The notes: generated from the sequence alone by a model not told the origin. Positions 3,380 to 57,400 are shown, counted from the stretch's first letter. The stretch is DNA of 64,000 nt from Patescibacteria group bacterium (GCA_041660605.1 JBAZWB010000002.1:66216-130215), one strand, 5' to 3'. Made by a program: numbers and translations.

Positions 3380-4294
3380 CTATGAGCTAAACTTAAACCT
3401 AATAAATAAATCCGCGAAATATTTAAAATTATTCGCTATCTGTTCAACCGCCTGTTCGCGGGTAATCTTCTCTGATTTGAAATCCACCAGTGCCTGCCAA
3501 AAAACCGTCCTGCCGACCGCAAAACCGATGACCCCGTCCACCCTGGCGCCGGTCTCAATCCATTTTTCTACCAGCTCGCGGGTCTCGCCGCGTCCCAACA
3601 CGATCATGCAGACCTGCCCGCGCCGCCCCTTGCGCATCTGCTTGATGACGTCCTGGTAATTTTCCATTTCCTGAAATCCCTCAATTTTCCAGACATCCGG
3701 ATCCACTCCGCCTTTTTGCAATTCTTTGACCATTTTTATTGCCAGGTCCGGACGCATTTCCAGATTGTACCGGCGATGGTCGGCCTGCACTTTGTTCAGC
3801 TGGTCCACAGTCGGAGGCACCAGAACTTCTAGCATGAATTTATAACCGTGAGTGCGGCAATAATCGCTTAACTTTGCTAATCGCTGGCGCTGTCGTTCGT
3901 TTAATTCCTCATCTCCGCCGGGATTGTAGCGTAGTAAAGCTTTGGCAAACTGCGGCCGGTATTTATCCAGGTGTTCGCCGAATTGGTGGTTAAATTCAAA
4001 ATCAAATTCAGCCTGCCCGCTTTTTTCCGTGCACATGCAGACAATAAAACCAGCCTGTCTGGCTTGGCGCAAAATCAAATCACCGCACTGCTCGTCCACC
4101 AGTATGGCCGCGGATTCTTTCGGCACCCCGCGGCTGACGGCCAGAGCAAAACCTTCGTAGATTATCTGCTTGTATTCCGCCAGCTTGGCCACGCGTTCAA
4201 TGGTAAACAAATCCTCCCAGCCGAACATCTTTTCAGCAAAGCTTTGGCGGTGGTCAAATGGCAATATGTATAATGGTTTGTTATATCCGAGCAT
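3380..4294 (-). CDS. Aldolase-like TIM-barrel protein (DUF2090 / 5-keto-2-deoxy-phosphogluconate aldolase-like), putative
   Basis: 304 aa; N-terminal LYILPFDHRQSF resembles the DUF2090/IolC-C-terminal-type aldolase family; family call from memory only. Confidence 0.4.
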   Translation of the reverse strand: MLGYNKPLYILPFDHRQSFAEKMFGWEDLFTIERVAKLAEYKQIIYEGFALAVSRGVPKESAAILVDEQCGDLILRQARQAGFIVCMCTEKSGQAEFDFEFNHQFGEHLDKYRPQFAKALLRYNPGGDEELNERQRQRLAKLSDYCRTHGYKFMLEVLVPPTVDQLNKVQADHRRYNLEMRPDLAIKMVKELQKGGVDPDVWKIEGFQEMENYQDVIKQMRKGRRGQVCMIVLGRGETRELVEKWIETGARVDGVIGFAVGRTVFWQALVDFKSEKITREQAVEQIANNFKYFADLFIRFKFSS

Positions 4295-4367
4295 TTTTTA
4301 TGGATTAACTTGTGTGTTTATTATAGATTAAGAGGAGATATTTTCATAATTTAATATTATAATTGCC

Positions 4368-6078: not shown

Positions 6079-6104
6079 TATTATTTAAGTCAAAAATAAA
6101 AATT

Positions 6105-6167
6105 CTCGGCAAAGCTTTGGCGGTGGTCAAATGGCAGAATGTATAATGGCTTGTTATATCCGAGCAT
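6105..6167 (-). pseudogene. Duplicated 5' fragment (first 21 codons) of the aldolase-like gene at 3380..4294
   Basis: Translates MLGYNKPLYILPFDHRQSFAE then diverges to a stop; about 94% identical to 4231..4294; all 4 differences are synonymous. Confidence 0.6.
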
Positions 6168-6234
6168 TTTTATATTTAGTACTTACGCTGGTTATTATAT
6201 CAGATTTAAATATTTAACTATGCCTACAATTTGA

Positions 6235-10552: not shown

Positions 10553-10996
10553 TTATTTCTCCGCGCGTTTAATCATATTAACTCTCCGGTGGTGCCTGGC
10601 TGAGGCGCTGAATTTGGTTTTTAACCAAACGGCCACCATTTTTTTTGCTTCAGCCAAAGATATGTAATCGGCACCCAGGCATAACACATTGGCATCATCA
10701 TCAACCCGGGACATCTTGGCCGAGCGCAGGTTAAACGCCTGGCAAGCCCTGATGCCCTTAACTTTATTGGCCGCGATGCACCCGCCGGCGCCGGAGCGGC
10801 AAATAAAAATGCCGCGGCCATCGCGTGTCTGGGCCACCTGCCGTGCCATTTTAAAGGCGAAAACGGGATAATCGTCCTGCGGATCTACTGCTGTATTGCC
10901 TACGTCTGCCAGACTGTATTTATTCTTAATTAAAAATTTCTTCAGCTCCTCCTTGTATTTATATCCGCCGTGATCTGCTCCTAAGAATATTTTCAT
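10553..10996 (-). CDS. rpiB: Ribose-5-phosphate isomerase B (RpiB/LacAB family)
   Basis: 147 aa; MKIFLGADHGGY...ICRSGAGGCIAANK. Confidence 0.9.
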   Translation of the reverse strand: MKIFLGADHGGYKYKEELKKFLIKNKYSLADVGNTAVDPQDDYPVFAFKMARQVAQTRDGRGIFICRSGAGGCIAANKVKGIRACQAFNLRSAKMSRVDDDANVLCLGADYISLAEAKKMVAVWLKTKFSASARHHRRVNMIKRAEK

Positions 10997-12363: not shown

Positions 12364-12483
12364 CCTGTCATTCTGAGGAGTCCCGCCGCAGGCGGGCGAC
12401 GTGAGAATCTCCTGGGTTCAGGCACCGCGGGGATTGTCACGTCATTCGCTTCGCTCATTCCTCACAATGACAGTAGAGTGGCG
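12351..12483. repeat. ~130-bp element with ~25-bp terminal inverted repeats (CGCCACTC..CTGTCATT); a solo copy of its terminus lies at 11051..11070
   Basis: 12351 ccgccactcccaccctgtcattctgagga ... tcctcacaatgacagtagagtggcg 12483; 11051 cgccactctactgtcattgt is the exact reverse complement of 12464..12483. Confidence 0.45.
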
Positions 12484-16128: not shown

Positions 16129-17343
16129 TCAGGGCGTAACATCCAATTTTCTGGCAATCAGCTTTAATAATTTTCGCTTAAAGCGCCATTCATTGATATA
16201 GCTGGAAAAAATTACGGTCAAGCCGGCCACGATTGATTCGGTGGAGCCGATGCCGGCCAAAATCCAGCCGTTGTGCATCAAATGGAGAACCGAGCCGAGT
16301 ATGCCCATGACCGGCGCCATGGAGACGCCGATTAACAAACCGAGGCGTGCGGGGTTGGTGAAGTCCTGGATAATAGCCAATTTTGTCAGCGGCCAGCCGT
16401 CGTTAACCATTATCTTTTTCTCATCGCGCAGCTTGATCAGATTATGGCGATACATAAAAACCGACTGGATGGCTGTAGTTAATGACAGAGCTACCGCGGA
16501 AACGCCGAAAATAACGCCGGCCCAGACCAGCTGATTTCTAACAATGAATCCTTCCACTGAAAACGCGCCCCAAGTAGCCAGGGCAAATACGGGGATAAGT
16601 ATGCGCGAGCGTTTCACCAATTCTTTCCAGCTGAAACCAGAGCCGCGCAAAGCCATCAGCTCTGCTGATTCTCCCAGCAGATCGTCGGCCGAGGCGGCAA
16701 AAATCTTACCTACGCCCCTGACCCAGTGCTCCAGCACATGGGCGATCGGTCCGATAAATAGAAGTGCCTTAATGATTGACTGGGCGATTTTAGTGCGCTC
16801 ACGCGCGTTATCGGCAATCACCCGGAATACCGAATAATCAACGGCCAATGGATAAATAATCTCAGACAGCTCAGACATAAATTGCTGCTCCTGGGCGGTG
16901 ATGCCGATATTTTCCTCGTCAATCAGAACTAGCCGCTTGAAGCTCAGGCGGTCCTTCAAAATTATCTGCAGTGATTTATCCAGATCCTCGCCATGCGTCC
17001 CTGCCCTGACTCTATCTTCATCTGCAAATATTGGGAAATGTTTTTCTTTCAGCAATTTTGGCAGCCAGGTAACGATATAATTCTTCTGGCTGTAAATGCT
17101 GATCGCATTGACCGCTTTCAGAATATTTTCCGGAGTCCGTAAGACAGTACGCACTCCGATGGCCTTTCCTCTCGTCAGGATAGCGCGTATTTTTTCCTTA
17201 TACTCAGGATAACGGCTGAAAATGAAACGAATCTCTGTCGGTAAATATTCATTCCAATCGCATTCCTCGGGGAGTGAAATAACCTCGAGCCGGTAAGAAC
17301 CAATTGGTGATTTTTTTGGCGGCCTGGTAAAACCTTCAAACAT
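16129..17343 (-). CDS. Hypothetical membrane protein (N-terminal soluble domain, C-terminal multi-TM region)
   Basis: 404 aa; hydrophobic C-terminal half; no family recognised. Confidence 0.45.
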   Translation of the reverse strand: MFEGFTRPPKKSPIGSYRLEVISLPEECDWNEYLPTEIRFIFSRYPEYKEKIRAILTRGKAIGVRTVLRTPENILKAVNAISIYSQKNYIVTWLPKLLKEKHFPIFADEDRVRAGTHGEDLDKSLQIILKDRLSFKRLVLIDEENIGITAQEQQFMSELSEIIYPLAVDYSVFRVIADNARERTKIAQSIIKALLFIGPIAHVLEHWVRGVGKIFAASADDLLGESAELMALRGSGFSWKELVKRSRILIPVFALATWGAFSVEGFIVRNQLVWAGVIFGVSAVALSLTTAIQSVFMYRHNLIKLRDEKKIMVNDGWPLTKLAIIQDFTNPARLGLLIGVSMAPVMGILGSVLHLMHNGWILAGIGSTESIVAGLTVIFSSYINEWRFKRKLLKLIARKLDVTP

Positions 17344-17504
17344 ATAATTTCTTCTGCTCTTATTATACCATTAAAAGCTATTTTTTTCTAATAAAAAATT
17401 AGATTAACTAGAATCCAATTCTTTAATAATACTCAAACCCTCCCATTACGGAGTAATCATAATAAAATTGTTTAATCCGCCGATTACAAAGAAATGTTAC
17501 GAAA

Positions 17505-17762
17505 ACAGAGCGAGGAGGAATGGTTGCCCATGGGCAACCGCGTTGTACTGTTTGAGCGAACGCAGCGAAGTCTCGCCGCAGGCGGACGAAGCGAGGAGCG
17601 AGTTTACAACGCGGAATGACAACGAGCCTGTTTATGCCTGCCCCGTACCTGGAGCGAAGCGAAATGGTGCGGGGTTAATTTCTTTGTACCGGCGCAGCTC
17701 TTTTGCTTCTTTGGCGCCTGCCCCGCTGGATAGCGGGGTTTGCACAGAAAAGAAGAAATAAA
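17505..17762 (+). ncRNA. Structured intergenic repeat element, copy 1 (candidate ncRNA; strand uncertain)
   Basis: About 95-nt core identical (3 substitutions) to 24805..25005; closed by a perfect 10-bp stem CCGCGTTGTA/TACAACGCGG; 5' GAGGAGGAATG plus hairpin; 3' hairpin carrying a nested insertion. Confidence 0.4.
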
Positions 17763-17812
17763 ACTAAACAAAAAACTGCTCTTCCGCAGTTTTTACTTAT
17801 ATATTGAAATAC

Positions 17813-19060
17813 TTAAGCCAAACCAAGAATAGACGAGATTACCAAGGCAACCGTGGCCACAATAATACCGCCGATGGTCAGCCAGGAGACTATATTGCCA
17901 ATCGGTTTATTGACGTGCTTGCCCATGATGCGCTTGTTGTTGAGAATCTTGACGACAAAAATCAAGATGAATGGCAGGAGTATGCCGTTTAAATCCTGGG
18001 ACAAAATCATCACCCTGACTAACGGAATATGAGGTATCAAGACAAATAAACCCGAAATAATAATAGTGCCCAATATTATGGTATAAAAAGCCCGCCCGTT
18101 TTTCCAGGTAGTATTAAAACCCGACTCCCAGCCGAAGGCTTCGCAAAAAGCGTAAGCCGTGGTCGTCGGCAGAATAAAAGCGCCCAGCATTGAGGCGCTG
18201 AACAAGCCAAAAGCGAATAATAATTGCGCCATGCCTCCCGCGAGCGGCCGCAGGGCGATGGCTGCATCACCGGCATCATTTATCTGTATGCCAAATTTAT
18301 AAAGAGTGGCGGCCGCGCAGATTATTATAAAAAAACTGACAATATCTGTTATAAACGCGCCCATGAAAACTTCCGCCCGCTCAGCCCGATAGTGTTTTAT
18401 GGCCAGACCCTTGTCAACTACGTATGATTGTATAAAAAATTGCCCCCAGGGAGTGATAGTCGTTCCTATTAAAGCTATCATGGTCAGTAAAAATGGCGAG
18501 GTCCACTCAATTTGCGGGATAAACAGGCTGGAAACTGCCTGGCCGAAATCGGGTTTAATAACAAAGCCGTTGATGATATAAACGATATAAAAAGCGGAAA
18601 ATATTAAAAAAATCTTCTGGGTTGTCCTGAAAGACCCCTTATATAAAATAAACCAGATGATCAGTCCGGCCAGCGGAACGGCGATGTACTTGCTGACTCC
18701 GATAATTGAAAAAGCGGCGGCAATGCCGGCAAACTCAGCGATAACAGTGCCGACGTTCGCCACCAGCATGGTAACCATCGCAAAGGTCGTCCAGCGGATA
18801 CCGAAATTTTCACGGATTATACCGCCCAGTCCCTGCCTGGTAACAATGCCCAGCCTGACGCCCATCTCCTGGGTAACGGCCAGAGAAATCGTCACTAATA
18901 AAAGCACCCAGAGCATCTTGGTACCGAAATGAGCGCCGACGTAGGTGTAGGTAGTGATGCCACCGGCGTCGTTATCAGCGTTGGCCGAGATGATTCCCGG
19001 ACCGACAACGCTCACGAAGAAAACTATTCTTAACCAGAGCTTACGCCATTTTTCTTGCAT
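17813..19060 (-). CDS. mntH: Nramp-family divalent metal (Mn2+/Fe2+) transporter
   Basis: 415 aa; GPGIISANADNDAGGITTY signature; about 11 TM segments. Confidence 0.85.
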   Translation of the reverse strand: MQEKWRKLWLRIVFFVSVVGPGIISANADNDAGGITTYTYVGAHFGTKMLWVLLLVTISLAVTQEMGVRLGIVTRQGLGGIIRENFGIRWTTFAMVTMLVANVGTVIAEFAGIAAAFSIIGVSKYIAVPLAGLIIWFILYKGSFRTTQKIFLIFSAFYIVYIINGFVIKPDFGQAVSSLFIPQIEWTSPFLLTMIALIGTTITPWGQFFIQSYVVDKGLAIKHYRAERAEVFMGAFITDIVSFFIIICAAATLYKFGIQINDAGDAAIALRPLAGGMAQLLFAFGLFSASMLGAFILPTTTAYAFCEAFGWESGFNTTWKNGRAFYTIILGTIIISGLFVLIPHIPLVRVMILSQDLNGILLPFILIFVVKILNNKRIMGKHVNKPIGNIVSWLTIGGIIVATVALVISSILGLA

Positions 19061-19070
19061 AATGCATAAA

Positions 19071-20285
19071 TTAAGCTTTAGGCAGTAACTGGCTCATCAC
19101 GTCATCAATCGTTACTATCCCCAGCAGACGATGCTTGCTGTCCAGCACCGGCGCGGTCAGCAAATTGTATTTCGTCATCGTAGCGGCAATGTCCTTGATT
19201 TTTTGATGCGGGTGCAGAGGCTGAGGGTGAGGATAATGCTTCAAAATATCCCTAATCTTCATCTCCGGAGGCGAGATAACCAGCCAACGCAGTGAAAATT
19301 TTCCATGATAATATCCGTCCTCGTCAGTCACATAAACATAAAGCACGGATCTCAGTTTTGGCGAGGCATTTTTGACCTCCTTCAGCGCCTCTTGGATTGT
19401 CCAGCCAGGTCTGACCGTGGCAAAATCGACATTCATCAATCCGCCGGCGGTATTGTCGGGGTAAGACAACAATTGCTCAATTTTTTTTAGCTGGCCGCTC
19501 TTTATCTGGGATAAAAAAAGACGCGCTTCATTGCGCGGCAACACTTTTACCAAGTCAACGATTTCCGAGTCTGTCATTTTGGTTAATATCTCAGCGACTT
19601 TTTCCGGGCCAAGATACTTGACGAGAACTTTCTGCAAATTTGGGTCAACCTCCTCCAGCACCCTGGCGGCTGAATCAGCGTCCAATGAGACTACCAGTTT
19701 GCTGCCGTGTCTCAGGTTAAGATCCTCAACAATATTGGCCAAATCAGCGGGATGCAGTTTATTGAGCTTCTGCTGAGCTCTATCTAGTTTAAGTAGCCCA
19801 TGCATAAATTTTGTCTGGCGCCAGTCAATCAGATTAACTTTTAGCAGTCCTGTTTTCCCCAGCCAATCAATGCCTAAACGACGTAAAATTCCTCCCATGC
19901 CAACATCGATTCCGAGCACGCTCATTTGATCATTGACTACACCGATACGTAAATCATTTACGCGTACCACCCGCACCCCGGCGATATCGACTATCTGCTG
20001 ATCAAGCACGTCTTTTTTCAGATAAACCAGGCCTTCGGCCACTCTCTCCTGGACATGAACGGAATTATAGAGATTCTTCAGGGTAATTTCTTCCCGGCTG
20101 ATAGTCTCGACATATTCATAAGGAATAAAAATCAAATCTTTGCTTTTTGCCTTTAAAATTGCTAAAAACTCCAAGGCCGGGTATTCACCGGATTTTGGAA
20201 TGACTAAAATATCCTGCAGTTTACCTACTTTCTCGTCAGAGCTGTCTTTGACTTGTCTGTTTAATAAATGGCTTAAATAAGGCAT
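19071..20285 (-). CDS. MgtE-like cytoplasmic regulatory protein (PRC-barrel-like + MgtE N-domain + CBS pair), with no transmembrane pore domain
   Basis: 404 aa; YPDNTAGGLM CBS-region motif of MgtE; no hydrophobic C-terminal segment; stop 11 nt before the Nramp start. Confidence 0.65.
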   Translation of the reverse strand: MPYLSHLLNRQVKDSSDEKVGKLQDILVIPKSGEYPALEFLAILKAKSKDLIFIPYEYVETISREEITLKNLYNSVHVQERVAEGLVYLKKDVLDQQIVDIAGVRVVRVNDLRIGVVNDQMSVLGIDVGMGGILRRLGIDWLGKTGLLKVNLIDWRQTKFMHGLLKLDRAQQKLNKLHPADLANIVEDLNLRHGSKLVVSLDADSAARVLEEVDPNLQKVLVKYLGPEKVAEILTKMTDSEIVDLVKVLPRNEARLFLSQIKSGQLKKIEQLLSYPDNTAGGLMNVDFATVRPGWTIQEALKEVKNASPKLRSVLYVYVTDEDGYYHGKFSLRWLVISPPEMKIRDILKHYPHPQPLHPHQKIKDIAATMTKYNLLTAPVLDSKHRLLGIVTIDDVMSQLLPKA

Positions 20286-20475
20286 AGCTATTTGCCATTA
20301 ATGGCCAATAATTGTAGAAAAGAATTTAAGGGGGAGTTTTTAAACTCCAACTTCCTAGCTTAGGTCGGGGTGCCGGGACCCCGCACCACTGCTGGGTACG
20401 GGGCAAGCTTGTCACCCTTCGGGTGATCCCCCAAAGGGGGAAACTTGCGATCTCAAGCATATTTTTTCCGAAAAT

Positions 20476-20515
20476 CGGGGTACTGGGACTCGAACCCAGG
20501 GTCTTCCCGCAACAG
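20476..20515 (-). pseudogene. tRNA 3'-half fragment (T-arm CTGGG-TTCGAGT-CCCAG + acceptor TACCCCG-A) followed by a T-run
   Basis: Reverse complement reads CCACTGTTGCGGGAAGACCCTGGGTTCGAGTCCCAGTACCCCGATTTT; same acceptor 3' strand as the adjacent tRNA-Pro. Confidence 0.5.
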
Positions 20516-20592
20516 TGGTCGGGGTAGTGGGACTTGAACCCACGGCCTCATGCACCCCATGCATGCGCGCTAGCCAACTGCGCCATACCCCG
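20516..20592 (-). tRNA. tRNA-Pro (anticodon GGG) with encoded CCA
   Basis: Manual fold: acceptor CGGGGTA/TACCCCG, D-arm GCGC-AGTTGGCTA-GCGC, anticodon arm CATGC-ATGGGGT-GCATG, T-arm GTGGG-TTCAAGT-CCCAC, discriminator A, CCA. Confidence 0.8.
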
Positions 20593-20689
20593 ACCACTGT
20601 TGCGGGACGCGCTACGCCTCAGCCAAAGGCTGATCCCCGCCCACCTGCTATCGCAGATAGCGGGCGCGGCGCCTATGGTGGAAACTTCG

Positions 20690-20945
20690 CTATACCCCGT
20701 TTTTTGGAAAAAACATGCGCGATAGTTTACCCCGTATCCCGAGTGAAACGAGTGGTACGGGGCCAACGGAGTTTACCCCGCCGTATGGCGGGGCCATACC
20801 CCGACCTGAGCTATGAAAAATCTTGCACCTTTACCCCGCATCATCTGACCCTGAGCGGAGTCGAAGGAGAAGAATGGTGCGGGGCCATGCATGCTCGTTA
20901 GTTTACCCCGACCTAAGTTATGAAAAACCTTACACTTTTGGCCCA
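20690..20945. repeat. Tandem direct repeats (~120-bp period) each carrying copies of the tRNA acceptor/5'-flank (TACCCCGACC) and a 35-nt unit CCCCGACCTRAGYTATGAAAAAYCTTGCAC
   Basis: taccccg occurs at least 6 times; gccataccccgacc at 20582 is duplicated near 20775; 35-nt unit at about 20786 and 20905. Confidence 0.5.
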
Positions 20946-21061
20946 GTTATTTTTTCGGTACCTACGGCGTTTCTATTATTTAATGATGCTTTTTTAAAAT
21001 TATTTACCTAAATCGCCAAACTGAATAACAATTATAGCGTAAAATATTGTATTTGTAAAAT

Positions 21062-21090
21062 AAAAATCCCGACATGGAGCCGGGATTTTT
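21062..21090 (-). terminator. Bidirectional rho-independent terminator hairpin (A-run / stem / T-run)
   Basis: aaaaatcccgacatggagccgggattttt just downstream of the 21129 stop. Confidence 0.5.
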
Positions 21091-21128
21091 GGGCAAAACA
21101 AGGTGACGTTACAGGCTCAGCTGTCTGC

Positions 21129-21326
21129 CTAATCAGTAGTTTCGACCGGATCGCGAACAATCGTTCTGCGAAAACCACAGGGATTACTGACAGTACAAAC
21201 AAGCTCCTCGCCGTTTCCCGCCATCGCGTCATGCGTTGGACGGATTATCAATGTGCCGCGCCCACATGTGCAGCCCTTACCTTCGTTAGACAAAGCCTCG
21301 CTTCTGATGATCTCCTGTGCTGGCAT
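21129..21326 (-). CDS. Small Cys-containing protein, hypothetical
   Basis: 65 aa; strong SD (AGAGGAGG) 6 nt upstream of ATG; GKGCTCGRG...CTVSNPCGF; second gene of a two-gene operon. Confidence 0.45.
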   Translation of the reverse strand: MPAQEIIRSEALSNEGKGCTCGRGTLIIRPTHDAMAGNGEELVCTVSNPCGFRRTIVRDPVETTD

Positions 21327-21348
21327 TGCTACCTCCTCTTGAGTAAAT

Positions 21349-21558
21349 CTAAGGTACTATCTTTCTTTTTTCTACTTTTAACGAATATTTGCGGGATCCC
21401 GGTACCCGTTTCAGGAGATAGGCGTCCCCGCATTGCTGACACATGACGCCAATCTCCGTTTCTGTGTCAATTATCTTACGTGCTGCTCCGTGGCAGGTTG
21501 ATGGCTGCTGGAGCATGTGTGCAATCATCTCCCGATAACACTCTGGGTGCTTGCCCAT
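21349..21558 (-). CDS. Small zinc-ribbon-like protein (C/H x4), hypothetical
   Basis: 69 aa; SD GAGGAGG 5 nt before ATG; C7, C22-H23, C39-x2-C42; basic C-terminus. Confidence 0.5.
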   Translation of the reverse strand: MGKHPECYREMIAHMLQQPSTCHGAARKIIDTETEIGVMCQQCGDAYLLKRVPGSRKYSLKVEKRKIVP

Positions 21559-21825
21559 TAATCCTCCTCAAAAGAAATTTGGTTCTTCCCTCATAATAAA
21601 AAAATTAGCCACCTGATGGCTAATCTGTAAGTCCTTTATTTTATTAGAAAACTACAGACTAACCATCAAGCCGCTAATTATAATAATAATTGCAATAACA
21701 ATACCCGCACCTATCAGGGTGAAATTCTCGTTATATATTTTGGCACTGTTTAATTGCATATTTTTTTCCACAATTTGGCTGAAATCAGTATAGCAAATCC
21801 CGCAAAACTGTCAAAATTACATTTT

Positions 21826-22422
21826 TTAAAACATTATTTCCTCGTCAGCCCGCCTGTAATCATGAATCTCATTCTTTCGGAACCAAAGCTGTTCTTCAAA
21901 TTTCGCCTCTTCAACATTTCCGGAAGCGTGGATCAGATTTTTAACCGTTCGCTTGTTCCTATTGGCTAATATCGGCGAATCAAGGGAATAATCGCCGCGG
22001 ATGGTACCGGGCTGGGCAAAGCGAGGCAAGGTATTACCCACCATCATTCTGACCGCATCAACCGCGTGTATGCCCTGTAATAAAATAGCCACTACCGGGC
22101 CGGAGCTTAAGAATTCCATATTCCACTTCCTGACCATTTTTCCAATTTCATACGGATCCTTTGTGCCCAGCTCTTCATTCGGATCCTGTCCGTATTCTTC
22201 ATAGCTTTTCAGAGTTTTTTGTCCGACATTAGTTAAATATATTTTTTCATCCGGGTAATGCTTGGCTACCATATCCTCATTCACCCAGACCATTTTCAGG
22301 GCGGCAATCTTAAAACCTGCCTTTTCAAAGCGCGATAATAATTCACCCACAAGAGCTCTTTTTACCGTATCAGGTTTAAATAAAACTACCGTTTTTTCTA
22401 ATTGCGGGTTTTCGCCTGGCAT
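21826..22422 (-). CDS. ndk: Nucleoside diphosphate kinase (long form with insertion)
   Basis: 198 aa; KTVVLFKPDTVKRALVGELLSRFEKAGFKIAALK and NLIHASGN active-site His context. Confidence 0.8.
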   Translation of the reverse strand: MPGENPQLEKTVVLFKPDTVKRALVGELLSRFEKAGFKIAALKMVWVNEDMVAKHYPDEKIYLTNVGQKTLKSYEEYGQDPNEELGTKDPYEIGKMVRKWNMEFLSSGPVVAILLQGIHAVDAVRMMVGNTLPRFAQPGTIRGDYSLDSPILANRNKRTVKNLIHASGNVEEAKFEEQLWFRKNEIHDYRRADEEIMF

Positions 22423-22426
22423 ATTT

Positions 22427-22849
22427 TTATTTCTTCTCTCTCTTAGTTAATAAATATTTTACTTTTTCCACGATTTCAGCCGGCGTGTGGTTGGCTTTGA
22501 TGAAATAGTCATCAGCTCCCAATTCCTGCCCTTTTTCCACGTCTTCGGACTGGCCCAGGTTGGTCAGCAATAAAATATGCGTACTGCCCATGCTGGGATC
22601 TTTTTTCAATTCACGCAGTACGGCAAAACCGTCAAGCTTGGGCATAATGATATCCAATAATATAAGATCGGGTTTTTCTTTTTTGGCGATTTCCAGTCCC
22701 TGTGCGCCGTCTTCCGCTCTGATAACTTTCAGCCCCTCTTTGGAAAACTTAGTGATATACATGTCTGCCAGCATCTTATCGTCTTCAACCAGCAATATCT
22801 TTGATTTAAATTTCCCTGAATCGCTGGCAATGTTTTTTTTATCGGCCAT
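22427..22849 (-). CDS. Stand-alone response-regulator receiver domain protein (CheY-like)
   Basis: 140 aa; ILLVEDD...LILLDIIMPKLDGF phospho-acceptor Asp context; conserved Lys. Confidence 0.8.
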   Translation of the reverse strand: MADKKNIASDSGKFKSKILLVEDDKMLADMYITKFSKEGLKVIRAEDGAQGLEIAKKEKPDLILLDIIMPKLDGFAVLRELKKDPSMGSTHILLLTNLGQSEDVEKGQELGADDYFIKANHTPAEIVEKVKYLLTKREKK

Positions 22850-22908
22850 AGTTTTTATATATTACGTTTTTATTGAATTTATTATAACAGTATTTAAATC
22901 TTTGTCAA

Positions 22909-24387
22909 TCAATCGCCCGGCTTATTTTTATGCCATACAGTCGCCTGTTCGTACTGATTGCCTGCTCTGAAAAGCAGCTCCTCGTCAAATGGCTTGGCAA
23001 TCAGCTGCAAGCCAACCGGCAAATTATTCACCGGTCCGCATGGCAGGGAAATGGCGCAAACACCGCCAATATTCGCTGGGCAGGTATAAATATCGGATAG
23101 ATACATCATCAGAGGATCATTGAATTTTTCGCCAAGCTTGAAAGCCACGCTGGGTGCTGTTGGAGTCGCCAGGCAGTCAACTTTCTTGAAAATATCTCTA
23201 AACTCCTTGGCAATCAGCTGGCGTAATTTTTGAGCTTGCACGTAATACTGGTCATAATACCCGGCTGATAAAGCAAAGGTTCCCAGGATAATCCGGCGCT
23301 TGGCTTCCGGCCCGAGGCCTTTCTCTTTTGACTGGGCGTACACCTCTTTTAAACTCGGGGCGTCAACGGACAAGCCATAGCGGATGCCGTCAAAACGCGC
23401 CAGGTTGGCGGAAATTTCCGAAGTAACTGTTATCTGATAAACAGCCAATGCGTATTTCGTTAACGGCAAACTAACTTTAACAATTTTTGCACCAATCTTC
23501 TTCAGCTGGGCGATGGCGGCTTCCACGCTTTTTTGCACTTCCGGATCCATGCCCTCGATAAAATATTCTTCTGGTACTCCAATCTTAATTCCTTTGATAT
23601 CTTTATCTAAACCCTCGATAGAAACTTTTTTATTTACCGAGGTGGAATCGCTAGCATCATAACCGGCTATGGCCTGGTATAAAATGGCGTTGTCTTTGAT
23701 ATTTTTTGTAATCGGCCCGATCTGGTCCAGTGAAGACGTCATAGCCACCAGGCCATTGCGCGAAACCCGTCCATAGGTCGGTTTTAACCCCACTACTCCG
23801 CAAAAAGACGCTGGCTGCCTGACCGAACTGCCGGTGTCGGAACCTAGCGCACCTAGGCACATATCAGCAGCCACGGCTACCGCCGATCCGCCGGAGGAAC
23901 CGCCAGGCACCCTGGTCTTGTCCCACGGATTTTTTGTTTTTTTGTAAGCGGAATTTTCCGTTGACGACCCCATGGCGAATTCATCCATATTTGTTTTGCC
24001 CAGAAAAACCGCCCCGCTCTTTCTCAATCTTTTAACCACTTCTGCATCGTAAGTAGCGATATAATTTTTCAGAATTTTTGAACCGGCCGTGCATTCATGA
24101 CCTTCGATCAGCATGTTATCTTTGATGGCCAGCGGTATGCCGGTTAAATAACTAAAATCACCAGCCTTAATCTTTTTATCAGCGTCAGCAGCCTGAACCA
24201 GCGCTTCTTTTTTAAAAACATTTAAAAAAGCATCCAGCTCTGGATCTTTTTTGTCTATTTGCTCCAGACAGTCGCGGGTCAGGTCAGCAGAGGAAAATTC
24301 CTTTTTCTTCAGTCCCTGGTGAGCTTGTTCGATTGTAAGCTTGTTCAAAGGCATAAACGCTTGTTGCAAGTAAAAATTATTTATCAC
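22909..24387 (-). CDS. gatA: Glutamyl-tRNA(Gln) amidotransferase subunit A (amidase signature family)
   Basis: 492 aa; GGSSGGSAVAVAA amidase signature; adjacent gatC. Confidence 0.9.
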   Translation of the reverse strand: MINNFYLQQAFMPLNKLTIEQAHQGLKKKEFSSADLTRDCLEQIDKKDPELDAFLNVFKKEALVQAADADKKIKAGDFSYLTGIPLAIKDNMLIEGHECTAGSKILKNYIATYDAEVVKRLRKSGAVFLGKTNMDEFAMGSSTENSAYKKTKNPWDKTRVPGGSSGGSAVAVAADMCLGALGSDTGSSVRQPASFCGVVGLKPTYGRVSRNGLVAMTSSLDQIGPITKNIKDNAILYQAIAGYDASDSTSVNKKVSIEGLDKDIKGIKIGVPEEYFIEGMDPEVQKSVEAAIAQLKKIGAKIVKVSLPLTKYALAVYQITVTSEISANLARFDGIRYGLSVDAPSLKEVYAQSKEKGLGPEAKRRIILGTFALSAGYYDQYYVQAQKLRQLIAKEFRDIFKKVDCLATPTAPSVAFKLGEKFNDPLMMYLSDIYTCPANIGGVCAISLPCGPVNNLPVGLQLIAKPFDEELLFRAGNQYEQATVWHKNKPGD

Positions 24388-24424
24388 TTATACTAGTTAC
24401 TAAAAACTAGTGGCTAATTACAAC

Positions 24425-24712
24425 TTATTCTAAAACCGGCTTAACTTTATTTAAATTTCCGGACTTGTGCGGAAACTGCTTAATAATTTTTCCCACGTCT
24501 TTAAATTGCTGAACCTTGTCTTCGCGCCAGACATTTTTCAAATCAGGCAGATAAGACGCATCTTTTACTTTCGTGGTGTCTACCTCCTGGATTTGTTTGA
24601 CGTAATCTAAAATGGAAGAAATCTGCTCGGCAAATTTCTCTTTTTCACCTTCGGTTAATTTTATTCTGGCAAGCGTGGCCAGCTTTTCAATATCCTTTTT
24701 TTCGAAATTCAT
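24425..24712 (-). CDS. gatC: Asp/Glu-tRNA amidotransferase subunit C
   Basis: 95 aa; typical GatC N-terminus (DIEKLATLARIKLTEGEKEKF). Confidence 0.8.
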   Translation of the reverse strand: MNFEKKDIEKLATLARIKLTEGEKEKFAEQISSILDYVKQIQEVDTTKVKDASYLPDLKNVWREDKVQQFKDVGKIIKQFPHKSGNLNKVKPVLE

Positions 24713-24804
24713 AACAAAATTATACCATTTAATATTTGACGCTACAAACTAACCGGAGAATAAAACTCTTCAGAGACCGCCATTATAAAAAATTTAAAAG
24801 AAAA

Positions 24805-25005
24805 AGGAGTGAGGAGGAATGATCCCGCCGATAGGCGGGACCGCGTTGTACTGTGTAAGCGAACGCAGCGAAGTCTCGCCGCAGGCGGACGAAGCGAGGA
24901 GCGAGTTTACAACGCGGAATGACGACGAGCCCTTTTTCGATAATTTTTTATACAGGCGGCAACTCTTTTGCTTCTTTTCTGTTTGCACAGAAAAGAAGAA
25001 ATAAA
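24805..25005 (+). ncRNA. Structured intergenic repeat element, copy 2 (candidate ncRNA; strand uncertain)
   Basis: Same ~95-nt core as 17505..17762; the 5' hairpin has different sequence but conserved hairpin structure (tcccgcc-gata-ggcggga vs ggttgccc-atgggcaacc); perfect 11-bp 3' hairpin cttcttttctg/cagaaaagaag. Confidence 0.4.
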
Positions 25006-25032: not shown

Positions 25033-27066
<2,034 letters not shown>

Positions 27067-27117
27067 TTATAATTCTTAATGTATATTTTATTAATTATTC
27101 ATTATACATTATTAATT

Positions 27118-29192: not shown

Positions 29193-29352
29193 TGTTTCTT
29201 TCTAATTTAATCCAATATTCCTTTCAAGCTTTAACTCCATTGGATTTGACGCACTCTATGACAGGTACGCTCGGAGCTAAAATTATTCCCGCCCGCCTGA
29301 CTTCGTCAGGCGAAGTCGGGCGCGGCATTATAAATTTTAAATTATTAATTAA

Positions 29353-43882: not shown

Positions 43883-44082
43883 GAATATCCGTCCACTTTT
43901 AATTAACTATCTCTTGATCTTTAAAAAATATTTAGCCTAATAGCTAACGACTAATTACTAGTGACTAATCTTCCAAATTATACCATTTATAAAGGCTTAT
44001 ATTCAACCTTGCCTCGAGCGAAGCCCCCGCGTGGGGGGCGGAGTCGAGAGGACCCGATAATCCACCACCTTGCTTGCCCTAG

Positions 44083-44235
44083 CCGAGACTTCTCCATTCC
44101 TCTTCGGCTACGCTCAGAGTCAGTCGAAGTGACAAGCGTTTGTTCAGGTAAAACCCTTATGATAGGCACCAGCGCTTGTCATGTCGACCATAGGCCCTGA
44201 GCTTGCCGAAGGGCCGAAGTGGAGACATCTCAGTC
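44083..44235. repeat. Palindrome-bearing intergenic repeat, copy A
   Basis: GTCGAAGTGACAAGCG (44123) and CGCTTGTCATGTCGAC (44173) form a 16-bp inverted repeat; leader GAGACTTCTCCATTCCTCTTCGGCTACGCTCAGAGTCAGTCGAAGTGACA is repeated at 44805. Confidence 0.55.
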
Positions 44236-44244
44236 AACTGCACC

Positions 44245-44538
44245 TTACCCATACCACCCCTCACTCAAATCATTCCAGCAGGGATTCATGCTATTAATCA
44301 ACCATTCTTTTTTCTCCCGGCGCCACCGTTTTATCTGTTTCTCCCTTTGTATTGCCACAAAAATATCGTCGTGCACTTCGTAATACACTAGCTTGTTAAC
44401 ATTATACTTACTTGTAAAACCCGGATATACTTTATTCTTATGCTGCCAAACACGACTTTCAAGATTTGAAGTAACCCCGACATATAAAACACTCTTCATT
44501 TTATTAGTCAGTATATAAACATAATATTGCCAGGCCAT
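44245..44538 (-). CDS. GIY-YIG nuclease superfamily protein (YhbQ/UPF0213-like small stand-alone form)
   Basis: About 97 aa from internal Met (MAWQYYVYILTN...SVLYVGVTSNLESRVWQHK...KLVYYE...REKQIKRWRREKK); the longer ORF extends to 44604. Confidence 0.8.
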   Translation of the reverse strand: MAWQYYVYILTNKMKSVLYVGVTSNLESRVWQHKNKVYPGFTSKYNVNKLVYYEVHDDIFVAIQREKQIKRWRREKKEWLINSMNPCWNDLSEGWYG

Positions 44539-44620
44539 AATAAAAATTCCTTCCGTTTGAGGAAGGCTATGGTCTAATAGTAGTATATTAATTAACTTTG
44601 TCAATCATACTAGCGTTTTT

Positions 44621-44775
44621 AACTCCAAGTCGAGATTTCTCCATTCGTCCTCGTTCCACTCGGGCTCAGTCGAAATGACATGCGTTTTTTGACGACAAAC
44701 AACACCTGATAAAACCACCCAAGTCTGTCATATCGACCCCCTCGACTACGCTCGGGGCAGGCTTCGCGGAGACAT
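44621..44775. repeat. Palindrome-bearing intergenic repeat, copy B (diverged)
   Basis: gtcgaaatgaca ... tgtcatatcgac; shares the GAGACATCTCRG tail with copy A. Confidence 0.5.
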
Positions 44776-44804
44776 CTCGGCTAAGCCCCACCCACGTTGT
44801 TTAT

Positions 44805-44862
44805 TCCAAAAACGAGACTTCTCCATTCCTCTTCGGCTACGCTCAGAGTCAGTCGAAGTGAC
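44805..44862. repeat. Partial copy C of the same repeat (left arm only, 50/50 identical to the copy A leader)
   Basis: cgagacttctccattcctcttcggctacgctcagagtcagtcgaagtgaca. Confidence 0.5.
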
Positions 44863-44883
44863 AGGGCGTATACCCCCAACACA

Positions 44884-53949: not shown

Positions 53950-54000
53950 GGGATTTAATTAATAATGAATAATGTATAATTCATAATGAAAAAGTTGTAA

Positions 54001-54369
54001 TTATTTTGTTTTTGATTTGATAATAATAGTTGTAAGAATTTTTATAATCTCCTGAGATTTATCTTTTAGCATCACCTTGGATTCCTTGGTAACTCTGTTG
54101 ACCGAAAATATATATTCAAGCCAGTTATCAGTTTCAATAGCTGATTTCCTGGCATAATGAAGATAATTAATAAAATCCTTCCTGCTTGTTGCCCCGGAGC
54201 CTTCAGCCAAATTACCAGAAATCGAGGTCGCTGAACGCACAATCTGACCAACTAAAACCTTAATAATGGAATTATATGGGATCTTCTTGCAAAGATTAAA
54301 AACCATTAAACTCAAACTAAATGATTTCTTCCAAATATCCAAATCCTTATAATTTTTAAACGTACCCAT
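54001..54369 (-). CDS. Four-helix-bundle protein (23S rRNA intervening-sequence protein family)
   Basis: 122 aa; YKDLDIWKKSF...IVRSATSISGNLAEGSG...ARKSAIETDNWLE family signature. Confidence 0.8.
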   Translation of the reverse strand: MGTFKNYKDLDIWKKSFSLSLMVFNLCKKIPYNSIIKVLVGQIVRSATSISGNLAEGSGATSRKDFINYLHYARKSAIETDNWLEYIFSVNRVTKESKVMLKDKSQEIIKILTTIIIKSKTK

Positions 54370-54420
54370 CTTAATCTACAAATTATACATTATAAATTAT
54401 GAATTATGAATTATAAATTA

Positions 54421-57400
54421 CTATGGTATGACCTGCTGATATACCGGCAGCGCTTTTGTAAAGTCTGATAAACCCGGCGGCGTATTGGCTACCACCCTTC
54501 CATCATACACAATCTGTTCAGACGGAGCAAGATCTTTGGAATACTTCCTGTCAAAACTGTAACCCTTGGCTACGAACAAACCGGAGACCTGGAGAGGTAA
54601 TCGATAATTAACCACCAGATTACCGGTCCCCTCCTTGAGGCCACGGTATTCGCCATCTCCGGCTGTTGTCTCAACTGTATCGTTGCCGCGGCGCAGCCGT
54701 AATACCATTTCAGATTTGCCGCTGACGCCTGGCTGGTAATCACCCCTGCCGATAAAAGACTCTACTAAAGTGGTAATATCCCGCAGATAGACCGTCTCAT
54801 CAGTAGTCCATTCGGTATCGCTGATATTTTGGGCAGTTTCCGAGACATCATCAGTCATTAGCGCGCCATAAGGATTTGAGCTGAAATCAGGATAATCTCT
54901 CACCAAACCCTGCCTGGTCTGGAATCCCACTCCTCCGCTGTCGCAAACACTGGCACGTAAGTGCGCATCTAATATTTCCACATTGGCAGGCAGATTAATT
55001 CCTTTAAACCGTAAATATGTCCTTTCGGCGCTACCGGCATTCCAGCCGATATTCATGCAGGCGGCACCCTGATCATAACTGCCTGGTAAGGCCGCAGTAT
55101 CATTGCCTAGATCTGTTATATCATAATTCACCTGTTGCGGTGAAAATTCTATTATTAATTCTGCCGGGGAACCATCCTCAACTGAACTAAAACTGCGATA
55201 TTCATCGCCACTGGCATCACCCTCTTTCAACACGACTCCCATATATGAAGTTGCATTATCATAATATGTCTTTTCATACTCATCGGAATTTATATACTTC
55301 TGTACCAAAGACTTGATGTCCGGAGTGATGTTTTCGCCATTATCAACCCAATCAGTAACATCATAGCTGACGCTATTGGAGGTGGGTATATCATACAAAT
55401 TCTGGGCGTTAGGATTCTGAAAACTTGGAGGAGGAACAGTATGATTAAAAGCATAAATGTCATTATAATTAGCCAGATATATCCTACCGATAAAATCACC
55501 AGCGACCGCATTGTCACCTGTTAATTTTATTTTAGCGGATTTAATTTCCGAGTTGGGCGGGATATTCAAGCCGCCGGTGCCAAAACCCCAGCGCAAGTAC
55601 GAACGGTAGGTGACGCCAGCATCTAAACCGAACTTTAATGAATCGCCGTCATTTACATTATTATAAACAGCTCCAGCTTTTGAAACATAAGCGTCGTCAA
55701 CGCCAGCCTGGACTGTCTGCGATACTGGCAATCTTCTGCCAGTACTGATAACGCCCTTTACAACATCATCCGTGGTATCCGGATCAATAGCCACAAACAC
55801 GCCAGCCAGCTGGTCAACCGTGGAATTAATGTAAATATTGCCGCGCACGATTACCGCCGCTGAAGCCATCTCGCTGATGGAATCAAGCGTGCCGGAATTA
55901 TAATAAGTATTGTCGTTGATTTCCAGATCGCCATCAATCACAATCAATCCATTGCCAGAAGTTCCATTAAAACCATTTTCAAAAGTCATTTCATTATTTA
56001 TGACGTAATGGTCCGCTCCGCTAAAATGATAAATCTGGCCGTCTAATGCCATACTGCCGTGAGTGATGCTGCAGTTACTGATATCAACTACGCTGCCGCT
56101 GGCGTCTACCTGCGTCTGAACTCTATTGCCATTACGATTCAGACCTCCAGTATTTGCAACTAAACCATCTATATCCAAAGTTTCCAAAACATTTTGCCCA
56201 AGCGGGAATCCCGCGCCCGCCGTCCACGAACCGCCGTGGTCCGCGCAGCTGATCTCGGAAACATAAGCGGGAAGGCTGCACTTACCGCCGATCAATGAAT
56301 CCAGGCCCTGCTGATAAAAACCGCTGGTTGGCAATCCGGTCTGGGTCTGAGAGTAATAGCTAGGGATGCCCTGAATGCTGCCGTCTGCCAATATTAAATA
56401 TGTTGAAGTAAAATCTTCAGAACCTCTGGGCGGCGGCGCCAGCTGGATATTCTCCTGGGCGTAAATATCGCTGTACATAGTATTGACCCAGGGGATGCCG
56501 ATCAAAGCGCCTACCGGCATGACCTCCAGCCAACCCAGGCCGGATTTAAACTTGCCGGGAGTCCAGCGGTTGTATTTCAAATCAGAGGCTACACAATATT
56601 TTTCTGCGCTCGATGGCCAACTATAAGTAATACAATAAGGATATTGGGGATTAGTGCAATCAAGTGATGACCCAAAATTATCCAGCGCGCCGGTAGTCAG
56701 CCAGCGTTTTTCCGTTCGCCAATTGCCATCATCCCCGGAACCGACAATATACATATACGCAGTATCAATAGCCATCCCATTGACATATTTACTCGCCGCC
56801 GCGCCAGTTACCACCCCACTGCCGGCATCGCCAAAGTCACCGGCTGGACAGGCGCCTGCAGTGCAGAGCGCGCCGGTATTAATATTATATTTTTCAATTC
56901 TCAAATCTTCTTCAAACTCATCATTTCCTGCAATATAAATATATTCCTGGTCAATATCCAGCTCACCGAGAATAAGGGTGGCAGACTGCCCGGCAATCAC
57001 CCCACCAGTCCCAAAATCACCGGCTGGACAGGCGCCTGCAGTGCAGAGCGCGCCGGTATCCAAACGGCGTTTTTCGATATGCCAGTCATTAGCAACGGTG
57101 CCGCCAATATACATGTATTCACTGTCGATTTTTATTGAATACAGCGTAACATTCGTCCCTGCGACAGTGATTATTCCGCTCCCGGCATCGCCAAAGTCAC
57201 CGTCTGAACAAGTGCCAGCGGTGCAGAGCGCGCCGGTATCCAGGCTGCGTTTTTCGATACGCCCTTTATTAGAATCATTGAAGCCTGCTACATATAAATA
57301 ATTATCATCAATAACAATATCTTGAGCCTTATTACTATCGCTGGCACCGGTTATTATTCCGGCAGTGCCGAATGAATCAACCAATGAACCATCTGACAGA

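Follow-up and report, generated by a model that had tools for sequence, protein, structure and literature searches.

The 64,000-nt stretch of a Patescibacteria group bacterium analysed here (GCA_041660605.1, JBAZWB010000002.1:66216-130215; hereafter the window) carries two copies of an intergenic element, a composite unit of 220-285 nt assembled from several hairpin modules. With a probability of about 0.55, we read this element as a lineage-specific composite mosaic hairpin DNA repeat, similar in kind to NIMEs and BIMEs and related to the Ssn-related motifs (SRM), although it fails the strict SRM definition. Hairpin mosaic repeats and the Ssn/SRM pair are already known; what is new is this composite, its modules, and its co-occurrence with an Ssn-family nuclease gene in a genome of the candidate phyla radiation (CPR).

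An earlier examination of the DNA alone (the sequence-only reading) had proposed that the element is either a novel non-coding RNA (ncRNA) or a miniature repeat. The second possibility is favoured by the modules that the element shares with other hairpins, by the gain or loss of whole hairpins between the copies and by the assembly breaks at their edges, whereas an ncRNA gene is left unsupported, there being no Rfam match, no promoter or terminator of its own, and no homologue in the nearest relative or in the 19 loci to which a covariance model was applied.

Extent and anatomy of the two copies

A direct check of the sequence located both copies where the sequence-only reading had placed them, in the same orientation and 7.3 kb apart (Table 1). 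The repeat scan of the window returned a 97-nt direct repeat of 95% identity (17537-17633 versus 24840-24936), which agrees with the near-identical core of about 95 nt noticed before and is far beyond chance in 64 kb, and the terminal 38 nt as a second block repeated between the copies. Gapped alignment and blastn carried the similarity to the left as far as CCGCC and to the right as far as AAATAAA; the left limit drawn originally was therefore too short. The window has no other occurrences of GAGGAGGAATG than those at 17512 and 24811.

Copy 1 occupies the gap between the Nramp gene (17813-19060, minus strand) and an unannotated open reading frame (ORF) of 404 aa (16129-17343, minus strand), and copy 2 the gap between ligA (25033-27051, minus strand) and gatC (24425-24712, minus strand). 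The claimed intergenic placement among co-oriented genes is correct, in that the neighbours of both copies (Nramp, a MgtE-like protein, NDK, a response regulator, GatA, GatC and LigA) are all encoded on the minus strand. In both cases the element follows the stop codon of the gene upstream and precedes the TGgTATAAT promoter of the gene after it. The relatives of ligA are found in metagenome-assembled genomes of Patescibacteria/CPR.

The copies have diverged very unevenly, with 95-97% identity in the core, about 75% in the left flank and a hairpin P1 that is different throughout. The replacement of P1 next to a core at 95% and a flank at about 75% argues for modular rather than uniform divergence. 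Moreover, the copies differ by whole hairpins, copy 1 being equivalent to copy 2 with the addition of two hairpins with common ends (GCCTG-CCCCG..CGGGG-TT), one in the linker (about 17636-17676) and the other in the loop of domain II (17721-17738). The sequence-only reading had recognized the latter as nested in the terminal hairpin of copy 1 (CCCCGCTGGATAGCGGGG), and the terminal hairpin is indeed present and followed by AAATAAA in both copies; the 41-nt insertion in the linker, however, had not been separated out.

Domain I is predicted to form a three-way structure in which the outer stem P0 encloses P1 and P2, the order of its parts being P0, the purine-rich GAGGAGGAATG, hairpin P1, stem P2, GAATGAC and the 3' arm of P0. 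As had been reported, P2 (CCGCGTTGTA/TACAACGCGG) is a 10-bp stem that is perfect in both copies; it encloses about 57 nt, including the hairpin GTCTCGCC-GCA-GGCGGAC. P1 reads GTTGCCCATGGGCAAC in copy 1 and TCCCGCCGATAGGCGGGA in copy 2, in keeping with the earlier remark that the 5' hairpin changed its sequence and kept its structure. GAATGA can be read on either side of the junction, and an antiparallel GAATGA:GAATGA pairing would place tandem sheared G-A pairs around two A-T pairs, a motif that is stable in both DNA and RNA. In domain II, the T-run is on the wrong side on both strands, and none lies downstream.

Folded as RNA, copy 2 is far more stable than its shuffles (z -4.7 for the plus and -5.4 for the minus strand), and z values of -4.0 and -3.5 were obtained for its domain I folded as DNA. 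Copy 1 alone is not better than shuffles (z about -2 as RNA and about -1 as DNA). The shared fold is the minimum free energy (MFE) or the centroid structure for both strands of copy 2; in copy 1 it is recovered for the minus strand and among the DNA centroids. Over the 33 proposed pairs, 98.5% of the pair cells are standard, compared with 38-47% when the partners are slid.

Table 1. Coordinates of the composite repeat, its parts and related features in the window
Feature	Position	Strand	Details
Copy 1 of the composite repeat	17477..17762	+	left edge CCGCC, right edge AAATAAA
Copy 2 of the composite repeat	24777..25005	+	from alignment and blastn; same edges as copy 1
Predicted domain I, copy 1	17501..17635	+	P0 17501-11/17626-35; GAGGAGGAATG 17512-22; P1 17523-38; P2 17538-47/17605-14; GAATGAC 17614-20
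Predicted domain I, copy 2	24800..24938	+	P0 24800-10/24929-38; GAGGAGGAATG 24811-21; P1 24823-40; P2 24841-50/24908-17; GAATGAC 24917-23
22-nt hairpin module GTCTCGCCGCAGGCGGACGAAG	17570..17591	+	GCA triloop, GAAG on either side; also at 24873-24894
Copy-1-only hairpin	17636..17676	+	GCCTG-CCCCGTACC..(GAGCGAAGCGAAATGG)..GGTGCGGGG-TT; T-G wobble on plus strand
Domain II, copy 1	17706..17755	+	CTTCTTT..CAGAAAAGAAG; loop holds hairpin CCCCGCTGGATAGCGGGG (17721-38)
Domain II, copy 2	24971..24998	+	uninterrupted CTTCTTTTCTG-TTTGCA-CAGAAAAGAAG
Related small element	12366..12475		two outward-facing TGTCATT.. hairpins
Ssn-family single-domain GIY-YIG nuclease gene, 97 aa	44245..44538	-	PF01541, E 5e-17; Y8, Y19, E66
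Five long-loop hairpin repeats TGTCAYNTCGAC..GGAGANNTCTC beside the Ssn gene	44085-134, 44177-231, 44632-680, 44726-778, 44814-863	-, +, -, +, -	

Shared modules, assembly breaks and distribution

A scan of JGI metagenomes with the 22-mer GTCTCGCCGCAGGCGGACGAAG gave eight loci and no full copy of the element; two of the eight are chance matches in GC-rich coding DNA, and the 22-mer occurs elsewhere in six non-coding places (L003, L004, L005, L008, L007 and L009). Four of these (L003, L004, L005 and L008) are on two AT-rich contigs (33-34% GC; Ga0265297), in which the 22-mer occupies a hairpin loop, TTTGTCATTCCCGC-TT-(GTCTCGCCGCAGGCGGACGAAG)-GCGGGAATCT, and uninterrupted TTTGTCATTCCCGC-GAAG-GCGGGAATCT hairpins adjoin the filled ones. 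An 'empty' form, GTCATTCCCGC-GAAG-GCGGGAATC, is likewise found on these contigs beside a 'filled' form, GTCATTCCCGC-TTGTCTCGCCGCAGGCGGAC-GAAG-GCGGGAATC. The uninterrupted form is the NTS/dRS3 sequence of Neisseria (CGTCATTCCCGCGMAVGCGGGAATCYRG; ATTCCC-N8-GGGAAT), and the near-canonical NTS hairpins of L003 and L005 fail the published SRM pattern at the last base only. In L009 the module is contained in a GTCATTGCGA..GAAGCAATC hairpin, while in L007, as in the window, it has GAAG on both sides. As a separate observation, the near-canonical Neisseria-type NTS/dRS3 hairpins at L003-L005 and L008 (TTTGTCATTCCCGCGAAGGCGGGAATCT) often have the 5' half, TTTGTCATTCCCGC, in front of them as orphan direct copies.

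Modules of the element also recur within the window. In the related small element, the first hairpin (12366-12411; TGTCATTCTGAGGA..GTGAGAATCTCC) carries the module variant GTCCCGCCGCAGGCGGGCGAC. The second hairpin (12437-12475), which reads TGTCATTGT-GAG-GAATGA-GCGAAGC-GAATGA-CGTG-ACAATC on the minus strand, is a 39-nt miniature of the domain I design. A hairpin related to the copy-1-only insertion has the same terminal AATGGTGCGGGG, which in this hairpin lies at 20873-20884. The motifs GAGGAATG(G/A) and GAGCG.AG.CGAAG are repeated at 12437-75, 17650-65 and 20846-75 and in the repeats at 44.1-44.9 kb, and GCGAAGC and CCCCG..CGGGG in other intergenic hairpins as well. The related fragments listed in the sequence-only reading are thus real but were misplaced, AATGGTGCGGGG being located at 17663 and 20873 rather than at 17655 and 20858, and CGCCGCAGGCGG at 12384.

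Elements such as this one break short-read assemblies. In two samples, Logan contigs of the same organism end at 17501 and start at 17727 in copy 1, and end at 24806 and start at 24969 in copy 2. Logan assemblies use k=31 (PMC12424806), and counting 30 nt back places the implied ends at 17472/17756 and 24777/24998, positions that are homologous between the copies within 5 and 1 nt despite the insertions. If the contigs instead stopped where variation starts, the positions would be non-homologous, 6 and 23 nt off, with one of them inside a hairpin loop. Because the implied boundaries are homologous, both copies probably border on more than one sequence context at their edges in those populations, and the breaks point to further copies or alternative junctions; at one unrelated contig junction the overlap is 23 nt and not 30.

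Searches for the element in other genomes returned no further copy. A 24-mer of the core had no match in 185,579 GTDB species genomes, and with other probes none was found in IMG/VR or in PLSDB plasmids and phage genomes searched in distant mode. The domain I covariance model R1, applied to the window and 18 loci (298 kb), matched the two copies and, apart from them, isolated 22-mer modules only. The nearest relative with the gene order ligA-gatC-gatA-response regulator-NDK (L011; LigA 78% identical) has a ligA-gatC spacer of 656 nt that is unrelated to the element and has no Rfam match. A 960-kb ENA contig (ERZ27249449 k141_729649), 100% identical to the window over 21 kb, gave access to 6.6 kb beyond the left end of the window, in which there was no further copy. 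No paper describing such repeats in Patescibacteria was found in a literature search. In L011, about 230 nt of GC-rich and apparently structured sequence were seen at 10700-10930, with AAAGGAGGAGGGATGAC first on the ligA-sense strand and no Rfam match.

Some observations concern the region 20300-20950, in which ARAGORN and Rfam detect only tRNA-Pro(GGG) (20516-20592, minus strand) and Logan contigs break at 20566 and 20645. The tRNA gene is enclosed in a 21-bp perfect inverted repeat composed of the acceptor stem and 13 extra bp (cccgcaacagtgg / ccactgttgcggg). The sequence after it (20467-20515) resembles the 3' half of another tRNA (gggttcgagtccc..accccga), and the next 300 nt contain dense CCCCG..CGGGG hairpins and two copies of accccgacctRagYtatgaaaaaYcttRcac.

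The Ssn nuclease gene and the weighing of alternatives

The Ssn proteins (cd10448, single-domain GIY-YIG proteins of about 94 aa) are site-specific single-stranded DNA nucleases (Chenal et al. 2025, Nat Commun, PMC11893778). They bind hairpins of the NTS type and cut a few nucleotides upstream, and their genes are typically flanked by SRM; in Neisseria, the NTS/SsnA pair modulates natural transformation, and SsnA tolerates loop extensions (PMC11893778). The GIY-YIG protein encoded in the window is 46% identical to the 94-aa SsnA orthologue of N. gonorrhoeae (BLASTP E 6e-27; tblastn against PLSDB, E 1e-17), with equal spacing of the catalytic residues (Y8/Y19/E66 versus Y6/Y17/E64 in the gonococcal ORF, as published for SsnA). 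This orthologue, which the tblastn search located on a gonococcal chromosome, has 10 NTS around it, none more than 1.5 kb away on either side. Around the gene of the window there are five hairpins of the form TGTCAYNTCGAC..(~30 nt)..GGAGANNTCTC, i.e. GTC, a 5-bp stem, a long loop, the stem again and CTC, which are the sole matches to this pattern in the window, about 0.06 being expected from its information content. An Ssn gene with hairpin repeats on both sides is the architecture described for Ssn/SRM (PMC11893778). A 51-nt perfect direct repeat (44084-44134 = 44813-44863) was also noted at 44010-44870, giving a cassette-like repeat-gene-repeat layout.

On the reading as a mosaic DNA repeat, the element would spread and be remodelled at the DNA level, its hairpins, once extruded in single-stranded DNA, being cut and repaired, or recombined, possibly by an Ssn-type nuclease. 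It would persist where it is tolerated, that is in the gap from stop codon to promoter between co-directional genes. Any effect on the host would be secondary, either as a 3'-end hairpin or insulator for the ligA and Nramp transcripts, or as a modulator of recombination or transformation, as for NTS/SsnA in Neisseria.

Membership in the SRM family was judged on several features. The SRM pattern (HGTCWYN(0-2)YYVSBRHN(0-5)WNVSBRGN(0-2)RNCYNB), which is narrow, gave nine matches in the 3.3 kb around gonococcal ssnA used as a positive control, and none in the whole window, both copies included (0.14 in shuffles). A generic count of GTCWY followed by a hairpin was uninformative (32 found, 29 expected). 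The minus strand of the element reads GTC-ATT-CCGCGTTGTA..TACAACGCGG-T, so that in both copies GTC is offset by 3 nt and the palindrome is followed by T rather than C, while a GTC directly 5' and a C directly 3' of the palindrome are critical for cleavage/binding (PMC11893778). The GGAAT-C 3' half is absent from the element, which lies 19-27 kb from the ssn gene, and the repeats flanking that gene are of another sequence type. Because of the pattern, the GTC offset, the T after the palindrome, the missing 3' half and the location, the element was not filed as an SRM; it appears instead to be a composite repeat with modules and a design in common with the SRM. The minus strand also reads CGTCATTCCGCG, to be compared with CGTCATTCCCGCG in the NTS 5' half, but this likeness may just reflect the complement of the GAATGAC loop motif, and less weight was given to the idea of a real NTS half-site, since both the wobble pairs and the purine-rich loops favour the plus strand as the structured one.

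The pattern result, the different type of the repeats beside the ssn gene and the ambiguous half-site all weigh against the reading as an SRM-related mosaic repeat, and so do several points about abundance, mobility and strand. In about 70 kb, no more than two copies were seen directly, and the protein searches in six frames suggest that the repeat family is not abundant. No terminal inverted repeats, target-site duplication or empty site were found, and mobility is not demonstrated. Five of the 33 pairs changed on both sides between the copies (two in P0, three in P1), the two one-sided changes result in G-U/G-T when read on the plus strand and in A-C on the minus strand, and the plus strand is strongly purine-rich in the unpaired regions (GC skew +0.17; background -0.1); a strand-specific structured molecule would also yield paired changes and purine-rich loops.

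As for mobility, the element begins with CCGCCGATTAC.. and ends with ..GAAGAAATAAA, which are not mutual inverted repeats, and no duplicated target is common to the flanks of copies 1 and 2. The target-site duplication that might have revealed a transposable element of the miniature inverted-repeat kind (MITE) was searched for around both copies and not found, and a classical MITE is ruled out by this lack together with that of terminal inverted repeats. The GAATGAC on either side of P2 was considered as a target-site duplication and rejected, since the 39-nt hairpin at 12437-12475 contains this direct repeat as part of its design, which makes the GAATGA repeats part of the motif. A REP/BIME system with a RAYT transposase was also looked for: the element has no GTAG REP motif, and the 30 window ORFs scanned against Pfam contain no transposase-family domain, nor a reverse-transcriptase or Cas domain.

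The pair changes raise the question whether the copies are two paralogous structured-ncRNA genes, transcribed from the plus strand antisense to their neighbours, with a three-way junction, a GAAUGA:GAAUGA purine zipper and a 3' hairpin. We consider this unlikely. It would account for pairs that are 98.5% formed, with five compensatory and two G-U-compatible one-sided changes, for a P1 whose sequence is replaced and whose hairpin is retained, for the z of -4.7 of copy 2 and for the purine-rich plus-strand loops; the wobble pairs and these loops led us to mark the plus strand as the structured one. However, compensatory changes from only two sequences are suggestive, not proof: the value observed was reached in 13 of 500 shuffles, and DNA hairpin repeats keep their stems too. 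Copy 1 has two extra hairpins and a plus-strand MFE structure that misses the shared fold, no homologue was found in relatives, and on the plus strand the terminal hairpin is not followed by a U-run. Rfam 15 at the gathering threshold detected only tRNA-Pro over the window, and its E-value mode gave nothing credible on either copy; the riboswitch, T-box, retron, group II intron and CRISPR readings likewise had no Rfam support. In a scan for promoters and terminators, no plus-strand promoter-like site was reported upstream of the copies, and no terminator-like site within them. The scan found the minus-strand promoter of the 404-aa ORF (TG-TATAAT, 17362-17390) and a bidirectional Nramp terminator (17771-17794) adjoining copy 1. 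A weak candidate promoter, TTGACG-N17-AATAAA, can be read by eye with its end about 5 nt before 24777, but the scan did not report it, and copy 1 has no -35 element. In short, nothing shows the composite repeat to be a new RNA gene.

The minus strand offers a different role, that of a cis element of the gene-sense transcripts, in which a large hairpin of the 3' untranslated region (UTR) would act as terminator, insulator or mRNA stabilizer. Such 3'-UTR roles are reported for REP, BIME and Correia elements. The placement of both copies from the stop codon of the upstream gene to the TGgTATAAT promoter of the next fits this role, as do the minus-strand P0, whose A-tract/T-tract stem runs into T-rich sequence (TTTTAAATTTTTT in copy 2, TTTTCGTAACATTTCTTTG in copy 1), the stability of the copy 2 fold (z -5.4) and the fact that ligA has no other terminator-like site. 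Yet Nramp has its own canonical bidirectional terminator upstream of copy 1, no terminator was called within either copy, both one-sided changes are A-C mismatches on this strand and the nearest relative does without the element, so that the role appears doubtful. Both the plus-strand RNA and the minus-strand 3' UTR are compatible with a repeat that has been exapted.

It appears improbable that the copies are inert leftovers of one local duplication or gene-conversion event, lacking mobility and function. Only two copies were seen directly, near each other and co-oriented, and neither target-site duplications nor terminal inverted repeats are present, all of which a local duplication would explain; it would not explain why divergence is so strongly non-uniform (core 95-97%, P1 unrelated, changes in P0 compensated), why the modules are common to unrelated genomes and why all the edges of both copies are branch points of the assembly graph in two independent samples.

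A small protein gene starting at GAGGAGGAATG, i.e. a Shine-Dalgarno sequence and an ATG, is hardly credible. An ATG preceded by AGGAGG is present in both copies, with a 61-aa ORF in copy 2 and a separate 97-aa open frame with a TTG start in copy 1. However, AGGAGG is merely 1 nt from the ATG, and the GAGGAGGA-ATG that opens 61 codons in copy 2 (24819-25004) opens only 11 in copy 1. The argument against a peptide made in the sequence-only reading holds, as the frame shifts both between and within the copies: the distance from ATG to core is 17 nt in one and 21 nt in the other, a difference of 4 nt, and a 1-nt indel in the linker shifts the frame again, the second insertion alone restoring it. 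When 5.8 billion proteins were searched with the ORF, the sole match was P0001, an ORF that had been called across copy 1 itself in a JGI contig of 338 kb, and the other five frames, concatenated, had no protein match. Elements of this kind produce spurious ORF calls, of which P0001 is an example.

A bolder version of the DNA reading is that domain I is an undescribed strand-specific nucleic-acid device of the CPR, with a plus-strand outer stem, a GAATGA:GAATGA zipper and a three-way junction, and that tiny hairpins (GTCTCGCCGCAGGCGGAC; CCCCG..CGGGG) insert into the loops of larger ones, possibly driven by Ssn. We regard this as speculative and quite unlikely. If it were true, the 'empty' and 'filled' hairpins of the other contigs, and copy 2 compared with copy 1, would be footprints of a hairpin-in-hairpin spread. 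To the best of our knowledge, such a mode of DNA spread has not been described before.

Other features of the window and comparison with known systems

Several further features of the window deserve mention. A 69-nt direct repeat (4230-4298 and 6103-6171, 93% identical) duplicates the 5' end of a DUF2090 gene (MLGYNKPLYILPFDHRQSFAE) and brackets a 1.87-kb segment with Fic/DOC and DUF4202/HD genes, which looks like an inserted cassette with a long target duplication. A 23S rRNA intervening sequence protein (PF05635) is encoded on the minus strand at 54001-54375, between AT-rich inverted repeats (53956-54002 / 54381-54423), which also pair, inverted, with AT-rich sequence at 27057-27117 and 29327-29352. 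A giant ORF of more than 3193 aa (54421-63999) runs off the end of the window and contains internal repeats (56683-57757) with a period of about 180 nt (also 153-156 nt). Finally, the extended -10 box TGgTATAAT stands about 5-20 nt before the start codon of several genes (17362-17372, 24721-24729, 43985-43995; 6 nt for gatC and about 18 nt for the 404-aa ORF), a proximity that implies very short leaders or near-leaderless mRNAs.

It was not until 2025 that Ssn nucleases were described together with their hairpin repeats, for the most part in Proteobacteria (PMC11893778). Patescibacteria rely on type IV pili to take up DNA. Several pilus genes are present in the window, and the genome, that of an uncultivated ultrasmall bacterium, is streamlined (about 1 Mb). 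If the link proposed here is real, it extends the Ssn/repeat system to the CPR and provides, in the natural 'filled' and 'empty' hairpins, material for studying how repeats grow.

Among known systems, paralogous bacterial small RNAs resemble the element in having two similar intergenic copies, conserved stems and some compensatory changes; the element differs from them in lacking a promoter, a terminator, a family match and conservation in relatives, and in the large hairpin insertions of copy 1. MITEs such as Correia, RUP, ERIC and Nezha are likewise non-coding intergenic sequences of 150-300 nt with strong predicted structure, but the element has neither a target-site duplication nor terminal inverted repeats matching a transposase, and no parent insertion sequence is present in the window.

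NIMEs, as Parkhill et al. reportedly described them in 2000, are repeat units bounded by dRS3 (ATTCCC-N8-GGGAAT). The BIMEs of E. coli are mosaics of REP hairpins, and both NIMEs and BIMEs number in the hundreds. In contrast, the copy number of the element appears low, it has no dRS3 or REP sequence, and there is no RAYT/Y1 gene in the window; like them, it is intergenic and composite, with several hairpin modules variably combined or present, and lies between co-directional genes. As to SRM/NTS, which are described in a paper that does not mention Patescibacteria (PMC11893778), the element is a composite of 220-285 nt instead of a motif of 20-50 nt and does not match their pattern. The two nevertheless have in common that they are hairpin-forming intergenic repeats in a genome that encodes a single-domain GIY-YIG protein of about 95 aa, that the ssn gene is flanked by hairpin repeats, and that the 22-mer of the element occurs elsewhere in the loops of near-canonical NTS hairpins.

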